The notes under the pieces were generated by a model. The model did no database searches and had not been told where the DNA came from. It saw nothing but the letters and a program-made list of their open reading frames with translations. This document shows positions 1 to 8,503 of a DNA stretch of 8,503 nucleotides, in pieces (within the stretch, counting starts at the first letter, position 1; every line of letters starts with the position of its first letter). A program made the translations under genes and the position numbers. Source of the DNA: a virus (taxonomy: Monodnaviria; Loebvirae; Hofneiviricota; Faserviricetes; Tubulavirales; Inoviridae); the IMG/VR virus record IMGVR_UViG_2698536505_000016, one strand, 5' to 3'.

Positions 1-3
1 ATT

Positions 4-36
4 GGTGCGCATAATGTACGACTCGTTATGTTGAAA
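4..36 (+). other. dif-like XerC/XerD recombination site (candidate attP arm)
   Basis: GGTGCGCATAATGTA at 4-18 matches the XerC arm and start of the central region of E. coli dif (GGTGCGCATAATGTATATTATGTTAAAT, from memory); TTATGTTGAAA at 26-36 resembles the XerD arm TTATGTTAAAT (9 of 11), displaced by about 5 extra central nucleotides. Confidence 0.55.
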
Positions 37-75
37 AGGCCGCTGCGAAAATCGAATCCCGCAGCGGCCTCTTTA
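37..75 (-). terminator. Hairpin with 11-bp GC-rich stem; probable intrinsic terminator of the minus-strand operon, possibly bidirectional
   Basis: AGGCCGCTGCG (37-47) pairs with CGCAGCGGCCT (60-70), 12-nt loop; on the minus strand the stem is followed by TTTTC, and it lies just 3' of the ORF ending at 101. Confidence 0.5.
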
Positions 76-100
76 GCATAACGTCATTGTGCGAACCAAT

Positions 101-580
101 TTATATAGAAATGAAAAACTCCTCTTCATTTCTTCTTTTATAATTGTCATCCCATATGAGTTTTATTCGGTATTTAGTTTTACTTCCAAAGCTTATTCCC
201 GCTAAAATTTCAATTCCATGTTGCGGGTGTAATACCTCATATGGAAATTTATCTTCTACATCATGCATTGAAAGATATTCATTTCCATCGTTATCAGGGA
301 AATGAATCTCTATATTTTTAGCCTCAACTCTCCCTCTATTAAATATCTTGAGCCTATAGTTGTTTTTGGCTATTTTTACGAGGCGAGCACCAAGCTCAGC
401 TTTCATCTCATTAATTGCTGACTTTGTTTCTTTTTCCAGAAGCAACTTACGTAACCTGTCTTGCTCATCCTTTATAACCTTTTGTTCTCTATCGCTTTTT
501 CTCGATTTCATTTCTGACGATATGATAGTGTAAATCGATACTACAAGCGCAGCTAAAGCGATGGCATCACTTGTTGTCAT
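101..580 (-). CDS. Hypothetical membrane-anchored protein, 159 aa: N-terminal TM helix, charged coiled-coil-like segment, C-terminal domain of unknown function
   Basis: ATG at 580-578 overlaps the upstream stop as TAATG; AAGGA Shine-Dalgarno 7 nt upstream; hydrophobic N-terminus AIALAALVVSIYTIISS followed by a K/E/R-rich segment; AT-rich coding sequence by eye. Confidence 0.65.
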   Translation of the reverse strand: MTTSDAIALAALVVSIYTIISSEMKSRKSDREQKVIKDEQDRLRKLLLEKETKSAINEMKAELGARLVKIAKNNYRLKIFNRGRVEAKNIEIHFPDNDGNEYLSMHDVEDKFPYEVLHPQHGIEILAGISFGSKTKYRIKLIWDDNYKRRNEEEFFISI

Positions 581-855
581 TATTTGATCCTTATATTCTT
601 ACTTCCCTTAAATGCCTTTTTGAGCATGTCGTTAAACTGTTTTTGAATGTCTTTTGTTAACTCTTCTTTTATTTCATCTACATGAGCGTCAATACTCACC
701 CCGTTTTCTTGGATTAACTCATCATTAGTAAATTCTTTCCCGCAGCCTACACATCTAACGACTTCAGACTCTTCCTCGTGTTCCATCTCTGTATTTCCGC
801 ACACAGGACATAGCAGGGTAATGTTTCTATTGTATTTCTCAGGATTCAGTTTCAT
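580..855 (-). CDS. Small zinc-ribbon protein, 91 aa, with a CPVCG...CVGCG motif resembling YgiT/MqsA-type zinc fingers
   Basis: ATG at 855-853 with GAGAGGA Shine-Dalgarno 5 nt upstream; two CxxC pairs 19 residues apart; stop overlaps the start of the downstream gene. Confidence 0.65.
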   Translation of the reverse strand: MKLNPEKYNRNITLLCPVCGNTEMEHEEESEVVRCVGCGKEFTNDELIQENGVSIDAHVDEIKEELTKDIQKQFNDMLKKAFKGSKNIRIK

Positions 856-883
856 ATGTTTCCTCTCTTCTACGTTTTATTGA

Positions 884-1306
884 TTACCAGTAATATGAAT
901 TTCTTCTGTGCCACCAATAAAGCAGGCCATATCCGACAATAAGAATCCCGAAGAACATCAGAGACATTCCCCAGCCAGTTCCATACCACGAAACCATATC
1001 ATCGAAAACCAGCCCACCCGTTTCACGAACTCCGGCAGCTTCCTTAAGAATTGGCTTGAATACCGGAATCAGAAGGGCGATCGCCAGTGGAGCACCCCAG
1101 CGAATAAGGCCAGTTTCCATTTTGATCCCGAAAAAGATCCCCGCACCGACAACAAGCAGCCAGACTATCAGGCCAGGCGCAGTTTCCAGTGCTGTTTGCC
1201 ATTCAACATCGAAAGTTTTCATTAGCCAGGCAACAACTGCCAGACAGAAAGCAAATACGCCTACAACAACCAGTTCAACGCCGCTTGTTTCGTTATTTCT
1301 ACTCAT
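884..1306 (-). CDS. Hypothetical integral membrane protein, about 140 aa, four predicted TM helices
   Basis: Internal ATG at 1306-1304 with AAGGA about 8 nt upstream; four hydrophobic stretches; the longer reading from 1453 would run through a hairpin and overlap the upstream gene. Confidence 0.55.
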   Translation of the reverse strand: MSRNNETSGVELVVVGVFAFCLAVVAWLMKTFDVEWQTALETAPGLIVWLLVVGAGIFFGIKMETGLIRWGAPLAIALLIPVFKPILKEAAGVRETGGLVFDDMVSWYGTGWGMSLMFFGILIVGYGLLYWWHRRNSYYW

Positions 1307-1339
1307 CCTTTTGATCCTTTGTTGCTGTTCAAAATCCGC

Positions 1340-1377
1340 ACAATAAAGAACGTGCAGTGTAGGTAATACTGCACGTT
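1340..1377 (-). terminator. Hairpin plus T-rich tract between the regulator gene and the membrane-protein gene; terminator or attenuator
   Basis: Perfect 8-bp inverted repeat CGTGCAGT (1351-1358) / ACTGCACG (1368-1375) with 9-nt loop; followed on the minus strand by TTCTTTATTG. Confidence 0.4.
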
Positions 1378-1394
1378 TGTACCATTCGTGGTAC

Positions 1395-1577
1395 TTAATC
1401 CTTTTGTTTGGCAGACATGAGATCTTCTGCTGCATCTTTAGAGTAGTTATCAATCAGATAACCTAAAATCTCTGTCCATGTAATTGTTTTTCCTAGTTTT
1501 ACACTGGCATTTATAGCCAGTCGTTCTAGTTTCATTTTTCTTTCTTCCGTCACGTTATAAGTCGTGCGCTTTGCCAT
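1395..1577 (-). CDS. Putative small DNA-binding regulator, 60 aa, ribbon-helix-helix-like (candidate phage repressor)
   Basis: ATG at 1577; N-terminal short beta-strand-like segment (RTTYNVT) followed by two predicted helices, the pattern of Arc/MetJ/CopG regulators; transcribed divergently from gII. Confidence 0.45.
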   Translation of the reverse strand: MAKRTTYNVTEERKMKLERLAINASVKLGKTITWTEILGYLIDNYSKDAAEDLMSAKQKD

Positions 1578-1746
1578 TTTTTACGCTCGTTCAATGCAAT
1601 ATTTGAAGTGAGTATACATGCTCGTGAACTCATACCATCCAAGCCTCTTGAACTCACTAGCTCACTGGTGTAATGTTAAAACACTAATGAACTACTGAAC
1701 TCATGTGTTAGTAAGTCGTCATTTTTGCAATTTTGAGGATTTATTC
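1578..1746. promoter_or_regulatory. Divergent control region between the regulator gene and gII; contains direct repeats (candidate operators or iterons) and candidate promoters
   Basis: Three 13-nt direct repeats, CTCGTGAACTCAT (1621-1633), CTCTTGAACTCAC (1645-1657), CTACTGAACTCAT (1692-1704), plus partial TGAACTAC (1688-1695); plus-strand TTGAAC (1648-1653), 17-nt spacer, TAATGT (1671-1676); minus-strand TATACT -10-like hexamer (complement of 1611-1616). Confidence 0.4.
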
Positions 1747-5272: not shown

Positions 5273-6367
5273 ATGGCGGTTTATGTAGTAACAGGCAAAT
5301 TAGGCTCAGGCAAGACACTTGTTAGTGTTTCCAGAATACAGGAAAGACTTGCTAAGGGTTGTCCTGTTGCCACTAATCTTGATCTTAAATTGCATAATAT
5401 GCCTATGGTTGGGCGTTATGCGAAAAAAACGCGCGTTATTCGCATTCCTGACAAGCCTTCATTAAATGATTTACTTGCTATTGGTATTGGGAATACATCT
5501 TACGATGAATCCCGTAATGGCCTCCTTGTACTTGATGAATGTGGTACTTGGTTTAATTCCCGCTCATGGGGTGATAAAGACAGACAACCTGTTATTGACT
5601 GGTTTTTACATGCCAGAAAATTAGGCTGGGATATTATATTTTTGATTCAGGATATTTCGATAATGGATAAGCAAGCTCGTCTGGCGCTTGCTGAGCATGT
5701 TGTTTATTGTCGCCGTTCAGATAAATTAAACATTCCTTTTGTTGGCTCCATTATGAATTTGGTTTCAGGGGCGAGATTTTCTTTACCAAAGGTACACTTT
5801 GGCATTGTCAAATATGGTGATAATGTTAATTCAATCACTGTTGATAAATGGATATATACAGGAAAATCTCTTTATTCTGCTTACAATACCAAACAAGCGT
5901 TCACAGATAATTATCCTCATGGCGCATTTTCGCTTTTGCCACCATTTATCACGCACGGTCAATTTTCTGTTCACAGAGGATTTAGTTATTATATGCGCCT
6001 CACTAAAATTTATTTTCGCAAATCGAACCGTCTTATATTAATGCTTTCTTTTTTGGCGCTGGGGCTTGCGTTTGGTTTCTGGCTCCAGTCTGGAAAGAAT
6101 GTTGATGAAATCTCAGCTATTAAATCTGCTTATGCTGAACAGGCGAGGGCGGTAACGCCTGATTCGTCCAGTGACTTACCCCGACTTTCTATTAATTCTT
6201 TTTCACAACTTGGCTTTGACGTTTCCGTTACGTTTGTTGATGCAAAAGGCATGAAATATCAGTATTTTGATTTGATTAAAGATGGTTATTCCGTTGATAT
6301 TAAAGATGCCTGTCGTGTTGTTATTAGAAAAGGCCGTTATTTACAGACTGTTACCTGTCAGGAGTAA
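5273..6367 (+). CDS. gI: Assembly ATPase pI (Zot-like), 364 aa, Walker A GKLGSGKT
   Basis: Start abuts the gVI stop; N-terminal about 160 aa is highly similar to M13 pI (MAVYFVTGKLGSGKTLVSV..., LLVLDECGTWFN..., AEHVVYCRR...). Confidence 0.95.
   Translation: MAVYVVTGKLGSGKTLVSVSRIQERLAKGCPVATNLDLKLHNMPMVGRYAKKTRVIRIPDKPSLNDLLAIGIGNTSYDESRNGLLVLDECGTWFNSRSWGDKDRQPVIDWFLHARKLGWDIIFLIQDISIMDKQARLALAEHVVYCRRSDKLNIPFVGSIMNLVSGARFSLPKVHFGIVKYGDNVNSITVDKWIYTGKSLYSAYNTKQAFTDNYPHGAFSLLPPFITHGQFSVHRGFSYYMRLTKIYFRKSNRLILMLSFLALGLAFGFWLQSGKNVDEISAIKSAYAEQARAVTPDSSSDLPRLSINSFSQLGFDVSVTFVDAKGMKYQYFDLIKDGYSVDIKDACRVVIRKGRYLQTVTCQE
5993..6367 (+). CDS. gXI: Candidate pXI: in-frame internal start at Met241 of pI
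   Basis: ATG at 5993 is Met241 of pI, the same position as the pXI start in M13, immediately before the predicted TM segment (MRLTKIYFRK...). Confidence 0.45.
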   Translation: MRLTKIYFRKSNRLILMLSFLALGLAFGFWLQSGKNVDEISAIKSAYAEQARAVTPDSSSDLPRLSINSFSQLGFDVSVTFVDAKGMKYQYFDLIKDGYSVDIKDACRVVIRKGRYLQTVTCQE

Positions 6368-7709: not shown

Positions 7710-8018
7710 ATGGATTCTTATGGGATTTTATCTGCTCTGGCAGAACGAACGATTACAGCGGAAGAAGCAAAAACAATGACACTTGCAGCCAGAAGTTCTT
7801 CGGCTCAGGTAAATGAAGCATCACTTGCTCTGTTACTGATTGATAATACTCTGGATGCGATCAAAGCAGCTGCCAGTGAAGGGAAAGGATACACTTTACT
7901 TCCTTCTTATGAGATTTCTGTAAAAGCCATTGATTTAGCAGAAGAATTTTTAAGGAAACAATGCGGCTATGTTATTGATAACCAGAATGGCGTAAGGACG
8001 GTCTATTGGTTTATATGA
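7710..8018 (+). CDS. Hypothetical protein, 102 aa, predicted mostly helical, no recognised motif
   Basis: ATG at 7710 with a weak G-rich Shine-Dalgarno; lies between gIV and the att region where Ff phages have only non-coding sequence. Confidence 0.5.
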   Translation: MDSYGILSALAERTITAEEAKTMTLAARSSSAQVNEASLALLLIDNTLDAIKAAASEGKGYTLLPSYEISVKAIDLAEEFLRKQCGYVIDNQNGVRTVYWFI

Positions 8019-8135: not shown

Positions 8136-8369
8136 ATGCAATTTTTCACATCCAGCGATACTGTAATGTTATGTGCGAAGACCTGCGATCGCTGTGGTCG
8201 CCATGCGAAGACGGTGGTAGATGACATTGAGTTCAATGAGTTTCTGTCTGTTAATCACTTAGCTGGATACGGTTCAATTTTTGGTGACAGTAATCGCTTA
8301 AAACTGGATTTATGCCAACATTGCCTGAAAGACGTCCTGGGCCAGTGGATTACGGTCTGTGACCAATGA
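8136..8369 (+). CDS. Hypothetical small cysteine-rich protein, 77 aa, putative zinc-binding
   Basis: Strong GAGGAG Shine-Dalgarno 5 nt upstream of ATG at 8136; CxxC pairs at residues 17/20 and 61/64; followed by the att hairpin. Confidence 0.55.
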   Translation: MQFFTSSDTVMLCAKTCDRCGRHAKTVVDDIEFNEFLSVNHLAGYGSIFGDSNRLKLDLCQHCLKDVLGQWITVCDQ

Positions 8370-8407
8370 CGGCACCGGTAACGCCAGTTCCCGCCATCCT
8401 TACCATT

Positions 8408-8440
8408 GGTGCGCATAATGTACGACTCGTTATGTTGAAA
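8408..8440 (+). other. dif-like XerC/XerD recombination site, second copy
   Basis: Same sequence as 4-36. Confidence 0.55.
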
Positions 8441-8479
8441 AGGCCGCTGCGAAAATCGAATCCCGCAGCGGCCTCTTTA
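8441..8479 (+). terminator. Same hairpin, second copy, downstream of the 8136-8369 ORF; candidate plus-strand terminator
   Basis: Identical stem-loop followed by TCTTT on the plus strand; located about 70 nt after the stop at 8369. Confidence 0.35.
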
Positions 8480-8503
8480 GCATAACGTCATTGTGCGAAC
8501 CAA

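Follow-up and report, generated by a model that had tools for sequence, protein, structure and literature searches.

The stretch of DNA considered here, referred to throughout as the window, is the complete 8,503-nucleotide inovirus record IMGVR_UViG_2698536505_000016 of IMG/VR, and the element of interest is a pair of small, overlapping genes on its minus strand, one encoding a 91-aa zinc-ribbon protein of the ECs_2282 type (580..855) and the other a 159-aa protein with a predicted membrane anchor (101..580). The two open reading frames (ORFs), the zinc ribbon and the TAATG overlap on which an initial annotation of this DNA was built were reproduced exactly in the ORF list and the sequence. 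The 91-aa gene ends in ...ATC AAA TAA, and its stop codon TAA (582-580) has base 580 in common with the start codon ATG (580-578) of the 159-aa gene, giving an overlap of one base. Sequences resembling a Shine-Dalgarno (SD) element precede both genes, namely AGAGGA at 866-861 for the 91-aa gene and AAGGA at 592-588 for the 159-aa gene, the former lying within a 5' leader (856..883, minus strand) whose positions 876-883 represent the upstream edge of an exchangeable segment. Since full-length homologues are found down to about 25-45% identity with their length kept, both ORFs are, on this comparative ground, real genes and not chance ORFs. The pair has a lower GC content than the remaining phage (35.4% versus 41.8%) and is the most AT-rich 755-bp stretch of the window, the lowest value elsewhere being 36.0% GC. 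The earlier description of the pair as AT-rich is therefore correct in direction but overstated in calling the difference marked, because GC content at third codon positions (0.31-0.39) falls within the range of the core genes (0.25-0.47). Directly 3' of the 159-aa gene lies a GC-rich 17-bp hairpin (34..73, no strand) with T/A runs on either side and a calculated RNA fold of -39 kcal/mol (100..20, minus strand), which is probably a bidirectional intrinsic terminator; a simple terminator scan did not pick it up. Taken together, the pair is a self-contained, promoter-less cassette composed of an SD sequence, the zinc-ribbon gene, the overlapping membrane-protein gene and a terminator hairpin.

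The association of the two genes is not confined to this phage. When one genome per species was scanned with a profile of the 159-aa protein, 39 loci were obtained from Gamma-, Beta- and Alphaproteobacteria, Desulfobulbus, Coriobacteriia, Bacteroidota and one Methanoculleus metagenome-assembled genome (MAG), and a search for the partner by hmmsearch with the zinc-ribbon profile placed a homologue directly upstream and on the same strand in 39/39 of them. The genes are typically separated by a 1-4-nt overlap or a gap of no more than about 22 nt (longest-ORF starts), and a few larger apparent overlaps represent over-extended ORF calls. Starting from the zinc-ribbon side, the partner was confirmed by both profiles in loci of Proteus, Agarivorans, a Sulfuricurvum-like genome, Alcanivorax, Alteromonas and Vibrio, while for Vreelandella, Pseudoalteromonas and Yersinia the adjacent 157-159-aa gene is given by database gene calls only. 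The initial annotation had proposed looking for the pair in other prophages and defence islands, and such co-occurrence proved abundant, many individual loci lying in neighbourhoods rich in defence or toxin-antitoxin (TA) genes. Regarding family size, the 159-aa profile matches 1,290 clusters (50% identity) at E <= 1e-3 and 472 at E <= 1e-10, nearly all of 145-160 aa, and the zinc-ribbon profile matches 1,211 proteins at E <= 0.01, of which the best 120 are nearly all of about 93 aa. A tblastn search of 50,697 deposited phage genomes revealed no homologue of either protein, and only a pIV segment of the window matches IKe, in agreement with the earlier statement that phages of the Ff/IKe group have no counterpart. 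The family is thus not phage-specific, and its two genes travel together in tight coupling.

Some loci call for a separate remark. The copy in a MAG assigned to 'Candidatus Nanosynbacter' (L013) is 100% identical to the pair and has an E. coli-like upstream flank, and is probably a binning contamination, and that in the archaeal Methanoculleus MAG (L036) may reflect either contamination or horizontal transfer. In Klebsiella (L058-L060, at 8517-8900) a conserved 127-aa gene that lacks a Pfam match follows the pair, ahead of the hairpin region, and may be a lineage-specific third gene.

Within the phage, the pair occupies a position that is exchanged between related prophages. The window corresponds over its full length, at 99.4% identity, to a prophage in the E. 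coli strain UM146, flanked by hipBA on one side and by a gene for a short-chain dehydrogenase/reductase oxidoreductase on the other; its plus strand encodes pII, pV, pVII, pVIII, pIII, pVI, pI (Zot) and pIV, and its minus strand has four small genes. This agrees with the published descriptions of CUS-1/YpfPhi and UPphi901, Lineavirus-like inoviruses that integrate at dif and frequently form tandem arrays (PMC4266046, PMC7307601). The window represents a single unit of such a CUS-1/UPphi901-type inovirus prophage, inserted at dif next to hipBA. Its two ends are an exact 99-bp duplication (1-99 and 8405-8503) containing the phage att region (1..99, no strand), where two inverted dif-like XerC/XerD sites surround the hairpin, the first at 4-36 (GGTGCGCATAA-TGTACGACTCG-TTATGTTGAAA) and the second being the reverse complement of 75-98, an arrangement around a GC-rich hairpin that resembles the folded attP of the CTXphi type. 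This region marks the dif-proximal end of the prophage, and the cargo slot starts at 101. Stretches of about 90-99 bp of the att region also occur, at 86-98% identity and at places with no annotated gene, on plasmids of Klebsiella, Pantoea and Citrobacter.

Local BLAST comparison of window positions 1-1700 with sibling prophages uncovered sharp breakpoints on both sides of the slot. One sibling (L011) has 1-100 and 884-1700 in common with the window and carries between them a gene for a 309-aa AbiJ_NTD4+DUF7014 protein; another (L012) is homologous from 877 onward and has an unrelated pair (89 and 240 aa) in the slot; and a circular Salmonella replicative form of the same phage (7,938 bp) shares 1-102 and 1322-1700, the slot being filled by a Fic/Doc gene. 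Conversely, in the ST131 strain MB1159 it is another inovirus core whose dif end carries the pair, together with the adjacent 140-aa membrane gene. Among 5,426 complete E. coli genomes, 28 carry the pair, always on the chromosome and in up to 16 copies in one strain, compared with 47 that contain most of the phage. The pair is accordingly a horizontally acquired and exchangeable cargo of a dif-proximal slot, siblings swapping the segment 101-883, and its copies on plasmids and islands that lack inovirus genes likewise bear out the earlier suggestion of a horizontally acquired moron. The 140-aa membrane gene (884-1309) was considered as a third component and rejected, given that it stays in place when the pair is swapped and is absent from the non-phage copies. 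With respect to copy number, the chromosome of E. coli EC5502 (NZ_CP092647.1) was hit at 17 places by the whole-window search and at 16 by the pair-only search, which indicates, as far as such matches can be read, that the prophage forms a very long tandem array there; L011 and L012 likewise show tandem duplicates.

Outside inoviruses, the pair is present at about 74-93% nucleotide identity on plasmids of Serratia, Enterobacter and Pantoea and on the chromosomes of Lonsdalea and Trabulsiella, in most cases accompanied by the 17 nt upstream and by the downstream hairpin. In four loci (L003, L004, L014 and L015) homology to the window covers about 28-872. It begins at about 28-30 at an XerD-arm-like TTATGTT and, after the hairpin and the second dif-like site, continues into the pair. 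Klebsiella L058 is 95% identical over the segment 27-101 and only 67.5% over the pair. This retention of 27-101 homology outside the phage, L058 included, suggests that an Xer/dif-like site may accompany or mediate the movement of the cassette, as in a 'dif module'. A further group of loci (L022-L028 and L051, with relatives L021, L029 and L030) from Variovorax, Xenophilus, Hydrogenophaga, a Comamonadaceae MAG and a 'Bacteroidetes' MAG has one and the same pair within flanks that are likewise identical over at least 3 kb, with DUF2958 upstream and, downstream, a 272-aa gene and a gene for an 879-aa AAA_13/AAA_21 ATPase; L022-L028 and L051 look like a recently spread conjugative or integrative element.

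The 91-aa protein contains two CxxC knuckles (C16-P-V-C19-G and C35-V-G-C38-G) in a four-cysteine zinc ribbon at about residues 13-43, followed by a DELIxEN motif that forms a turn, a long helix (52-87) and the tail AFKGSKNIRIK. Both the cysteine knuckles and the nearly invariant basic tail are conserved from Enterobacterales, including E. coli, to Bacteroidales, and the tail is of low confidence in the AlphaFold2 (AF2) model of the monomer (overall predicted local distance difference test (pLDDT) score 80.1), a combination that would be typical of a segment folding on a partner. The protein belongs to NCBIfam NF047912, the ECs_2282 family, with 65.2 bits against a cutoff of 37 over residues 12-65, bears the name of that family in its NCBI annotation, and matches phrog_4852 (E 8e-18). 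The namesake ECs_2282 of the Sakai lambdoid prophage Sp12 differs in being a stand-alone protein of 66 aa without the 159-aa partner, the long helix or the basic tail; with 31% BLASTP identity over 68 aligned columns (E 2e-4) and 17.7 bits against the pair-specific profile, it is by these alignments a distant, shorter relative. Beyond this, structure and sequence searches returned only generic ribbons, e.g. eS27, TFIIB and Cas12f, and a PDB sequence search with the profiles of both proteins gave nothing other than generic eS27-type ribbons and noise. In PADLOC-DB v2.0.0 the 91-aa protein has partial, ribbon-level matches only, to PDC-S64 (E 4e-7, 59/339 positions), HEC-08 and the Cas12f zinc ribbon, and no catalogued system has models matching both proteins.

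The initial annotation had likened the ribbon to that of YgiT/MqsA, and some resemblance exists in the small N-terminal four-cysteine zinc-binding module and in the bicistronic, overlapping operon. However, membership of that family did not withstand closer comparison, as hidden Markov model (HMM) scores remain below the cutoffs (18.9 versus 61.8 bits for TIGR03830, CxxCG_CxxCG_HTH; 14.8 versus 20.2 for TIGR03831, the YgiT finger), Foldseek E values to 3gn5/3ga8 are 0.68-1.2, and only helix 52-87 follows the ribbon in the AF2 model where MqsA has a C-terminal XRE-type helix-turn-helix (HTH). Neither an HTH nor a ribbon-helix-helix (RHH) DNA-binding domain is present in that model, and there is no HTH match in Pfam. 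Furthermore, the partner in MqsRA is an RNase of the MqsR/RelE fold, to which the 159-aa protein does not belong. The toxin gene comes first in the MqsRA operon.

For the 159-aa protein, the initial annotation had proposed one N-terminal transmembrane (TM) helix, which the present analysis supports, a coiled-coil-like segment and an unassigned C-terminal domain. The AF2 model (pLDDT 83.5, from a 30-sequence alignment) consists of a single continuous helix (3-59) and an Ig-like beta-sandwich of 7-8 strands (63-158). The best 19-residue Kyte-Doolittle window is located at residues 6-24, with a score of 1.85 (family median 1.95), and the hydrophobic segment is N-terminal in 96% of 130 family members. 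On average 3.0 K/R residues occur in the 12 residues after this segment compared with 0.4 ahead of it, from which the positive-inside rule predicts a single-pass N-out/C-in topology with stalk and beta-sandwich in the cytoplasm. Conservation across the family involves A11/L12 in the membrane helix, L43 and an LLLEKE stretch in the charged helical stalk that extends to residue 59, and N81-x-G83-xxx-A87-x-N89-V, F112-P113 and W143-x-D145 in the sandwich. A search of BFVD matched only uncharacterised phage proteins of similar TM-plus-sandwich architecture, and phrog_1350, a holin-like family, gave a weak match to the TM and charged region (residues 1-63, E 0.003). A holin identity was rejected in view of this E value and of the missing endolysin/spanin context; inoviruses do not lyse their host cells. 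Several alleles from Klebsiella, Salmonella and Enterobacteriaceae (P0032, P0035, P0040, P0048 and P0051) lack the first 41-45 residues, i.e. the membrane helix and part of the stalk, and in another (P0072) a fragment of the protein is fused to transposase domains; judged by their sequences, these may be inactivated copies.

The genomic neighbourhoods of the pair are frequently, although not always, those of defence and TA genes. On an Enterobacter kobei plasmid it lies beside a nucleotidyltransferase and S-4TM gene resembling those of the cyclic oligonucleotide-based antiphage signalling system (CBASS), a TIR protein, a DUF4411/XRE module and a GNAT/DUF1778 TA module; a Pantoea plasmid has an abortive-infection family gene and RelE nearby; and plasmid copies adjoin RelE/ParE, ParDE and TacAT modules. 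Restriction-modification (R-M) genes recur in several lineages: in Proteus the pair is situated between type I R-M plus Mrr and an AlpA/DUF3987 island, in one MAG it adjoins SIR2-nSTAND and type I R-M genes, in Desulfobulbus HsdR is directly upstream, and in four Bacteroidales genomes the order is hsdM, SLFN/AlbA_2, pair, hsdS. Two Yersinia species have an OLD-like AAA_15-TOPRIM gene directly downstream, and in one Yersinia the pair is inserted between a P4-alpha-like primase and an integrase in an AlpA/primase/integrase island. DUF4238, HEPN-RES and GmrSD_C plus Abi_C are further neighbours, depending on the locus. In Alcanivorax (L056) the pair forms part of a same-strand array of small genes (PIN, HEPN_Swt1, CAP12-type TIR, pair, SymE, GFA, GNAT) interspersed with palindromic repeats of about 36-79 nt at 2136, 3654, 5011, 9340 and 10092, and in Agarivorans (L006) it is bracketed by two 121-nt repeats that are 93% identical (5774-5894 and 7719-7839); both patterns look like chromosomal integron cassette arrays. 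Read from these sequences, the same two-gene cassette moves between prophages, plasmids, integron-like arrays, satellite-type islands and type I R-M operons.

The statement with the strongest support is that the pair is a conserved, promoter-less two-gene cassette that behaves like a defence/TA cargo gene set. As to its function, the reading that we favour, tentatively and with slightly less than even confidence, is that of a candidate anti-phage defence module, abortive-infection- or TA-like, with a membrane effector. It derives from the Abi- and toxin-type genes that take the slot in siblings, from the embedding of the pair in R-M operons and defence islands, from the nature of one product as a small membrane protein without an enzymatic domain, like the effectors of RexAB, CBASS, Pycsar and retrons, and from the weak likeness of the ribbon to validated or candidate defence proteins, HEC-08 being a validated HEPN defence protein and PDC-S64 a candidate (bioRxiv 10.1101/2024.01.29.577857). 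An architecture of sensor plus membrane effector is suggested by the TM statistics, the fold models, the invariant tail of low pLDDT, the weak phrog_1350 match and the recurrent TM-less alleles. Under such a scheme the leftward transcript of the repressor side would provide for expression of the cassette in the lysogen, and the 159-aa protein would be anchored in the inner membrane, stalk and beta-sandwich facing the cytoplasm. The 91-aa protein would bind to it, with its long helix aligned with the stalk and its basic tail joining the sandwich as an additional strand, and would serve as sensor, restraint or both. An infection cue could then release or reorganise the complex so that the membrane helices oligomerise, which would compromise the membrane and halt the invading phage. 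The effector role of the 159-aa protein, the membrane damage and the phage phenotype are candidate properties.

Several observations weigh against a defence function. The promoter scan of the minus strand at 855-1800 revealed no sigma-70-like site. A catalytic domain was found in neither protein by family, sequence or structure searches, and the 159-aa protein matches no Pfam or NCBIfam family and no PADLOC model, the scans giving noise only (NusG_II E 0.11, DUF6941 E 0.24). The best Kyte-Doolittle window is below 1.6 in 23% of family members, their hydrophobic segment being short, so membrane insertion is not certain in these homologues. In the neighbour census, which took two genes on each side per locus and comprised 120 flanking proteins from 34 non-redundant loci, type I R-M subunits, AAA_21, SLFN/AlbA_2 and SMODS were the top Pfam families, but these are raw counts, and several loci, e.g. 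L006, L055 and L061, contain no recognisable defence neighbour. Moreover, in the published screens (Doron 2018, Gao 2020, Millman 2022) guilt by association reportedly turned out to be wrong for roughly half of the tested candidates.

A type II TA addiction module, in which the 159-aa protein would be the toxin and the zinc-ribbon protein a labile, autoregulating antitoxin that together stabilise a prophage, plasmid or integron array, is the next reading to be weighed. The bicistronic, translationally coupled operon that is generic to type II TA systems was indeed found (1-nt overlap; adjacency in 39/39 loci), and the conserved small-gene-first order, the RelE/ParE, ParDE and TacAT neighbours of plasmid copies, the Fic/Doc gene in the slot of a sibling phage and the recurrence of N-terminally truncated alleles of the putative toxin are all compatible with addiction, as is the presence in integron-like arrays, where TA cassettes are common (bioRxiv 10.1101/2024.07.02.601686). 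On the other hand, neither protein has TA-family homology, considering the sub-cutoff MqsA HMM scores, the lack of HTH/RHH domains and the absence of PADLOC/TA matches, a 96-residue Ig-like domain in the cytoplasm, without an enzyme fold, would be out of the ordinary for a proteinaceous type II toxin, and location inside type I R-M operons and satellite-type islands favours defence over plain addiction. Addiction alone is for these reasons considered unlikely, if well worth bearing in mind; TA and defence readings are not mutually exclusive.

Still less probable is a non-defence accessory role, whether as a lysogenic-conversion or fitness factor of extraintestinal pathogenic E. coli (ExPEC), as a membrane-stress or regulatory module, or as an anti-defence (counter-restriction) cassette. 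The carriage of the cassette by many kinds of mobile element and the lack of an enzymatic or known defence domain would fit such a role, and CUS-1 and YpfPhi have been tied to modest in-vivo fitness effects, but the published CUS-1 virulence mutation is in puvA, which encodes a virion protein, and not in the pair (PMC4266046). In addition, occurrence of the family in environmental Beta- and Alphaproteobacteria and in Bacteroidota shows that it is not pathogen-specific, and embedding in chromosomal type I R-M operons is unexpected for an anti-restriction gene. Finally, superinfection exclusion or a lifecycle role specific to filamentous phages, e.g. an entry block at TolQRA or the pilus, or modulation of assembly, is highly improbable despite the predicted location in the inner membrane, the site of inovirus entry and assembly, the co-orientation with repressor-side genes and the carriage by two different inovirus backbones, because most family members reside in loci without inovirus genes in several phyla, the pair is absent from most UPphi-type prophages, including the siblings compared, the folded domain is predicted to be cytoplasmic and not periplasmic, and Pfam/PHROG comparison detected no homology of either protein to the inovirus core proteins (pI-pIX/pX) and hence to the morphogenesis or replication functions that the initial annotation had named as counter-evidence to its own proposal.

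With the candidate defence module retained as the preferred reading, the pair can be compared with known systems. Abortive-infection systems of two genes, in which a cytoplasmic sensor is combined with a membrane effector (RexAB, Sucellos and the TM effectors of CBASS, Pycsar and retrons), share with it the organisation as two genes on a prophage or cassette, one product being a membrane protein without an enzymatic domain; both genes are required in the examples known, and morons or integron cassettes serve as their vehicles (bioRxiv 10.1101/2024.07.02.601686). Nevertheless, there is no sequence or fold relationship and no PADLOC match to RexA/RexB or other effectors, the 159-aa protein has one TM helix as opposed to 2-4 in those effectors, and nothing among them corresponds to its Ig-like domain in the cytoplasm or to its zinc-ribbon partner. 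Sucellos, an integron system, was examined as a possible identity of the pair and discarded, since it is a different, RexAB-like system. The Bacteroidales arrangement between hsdM and hsdS, with the SLFN/AlbA_2 gene for an ATPase alongside, recalls genes embedded in type I R-M/Hma operons, such as PrrC and the HEC systems (Payne et al.), from which the pair differs in having no HEPN or anticodon-nuclease domain; similarity to the zinc-ribbon region of HEC-08 is weak (E 3e-4) and restricted to a generic ribbon of about 50 residues. With respect to the phage literature, the reverse-oriented ORFs of UPphi901 and 'orf1/orf1a' of CUS-1 occupy the same locus and position as the pair and are equated with it by position only. 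These ORFs adjacent to attL/dif vary among CUS-1, YpfPhi and UPphi variants, have no assigned function and were reported without homologues (PMC4266046, PMC7307601), whereas the pair emerges here as a widespread, independently mobile two-gene family with a defence-island context.

A description of the pair was not found in PADLOC v2, Pfam, NCBIfam (apart from the domain-level ECs_2282 name) or the PDB, nor in the searchable literature on the accessions, ECs_2282 or zinc-ribbon/TM defence pairs, where recent naming elsewhere is possible; a zinc-ribbon system is likewise absent from the main text of Rousset 2022, which deals with P4/P2 hotspots, and PHROGs label both protein families as 'unknown function'. 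The family therefore appears to be uncharacterised, although it would be of a familiar kind, namely a prophage-borne defence/TA-type moron with a two-gene sensor and membrane effector. Whether it is the founding example of an unnamed and widespread two-gene immune system of Proteobacteria and Bacteroidota, possibly reaching beyond these, that spreads as a promoter-less cassette via Xer/dif sites, integron-like arrays and R-M operons and includes an ExPEC filamentous prophage, is a more ambitious proposal that we regard as doubtful, yet conceivable.

Next to the slot, the 140-aa multi-pass membrane protein (884-1309, minus strand; 423 nt from the annotated start) corresponds to phrog_4174, and a 60-aa protein (1395-1577, minus strand; phrog_2503) is encoded in an RstR-like position; both genes are conserved among UPphi variants with no function assigned, and ST131 MB1159 has a 148-aa HTH regulator in place of the latter. 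After pIV, the plus strand carries a 102-aa ORF (7710-8018; phrog_4115) and a 77-aa ORF with a CxxC...CxxC pattern (8136-8369; phrog_5435), which are the counterparts of 'h1/h2', the genes by which UPphi phages are defined and to which no function is assigned (PMC7307601).

If the pair is indeed a defence or abortive-infection module, it would represent a compact (about 0.78 kb), enzyme-free, two-protein addition to the bacterial immune repertoire. In the dif-integrating filamentous prophages of ExPEC, Salmonella and Yersinia, the cargo slot swaps defence-type genes (the pair, AbiJ-like, Fic/Doc), and this exchangeable cargo could help to explain why such unstable prophages are retained. For the 'unknown ORFs' of CUS-1 and UPphi a concrete and testable hypothesis is thereby gained, while a single gene family links three routes of cassette mobility, i.e. 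Xer/dif sites, integron-like arrays and embedding in R-M operons.

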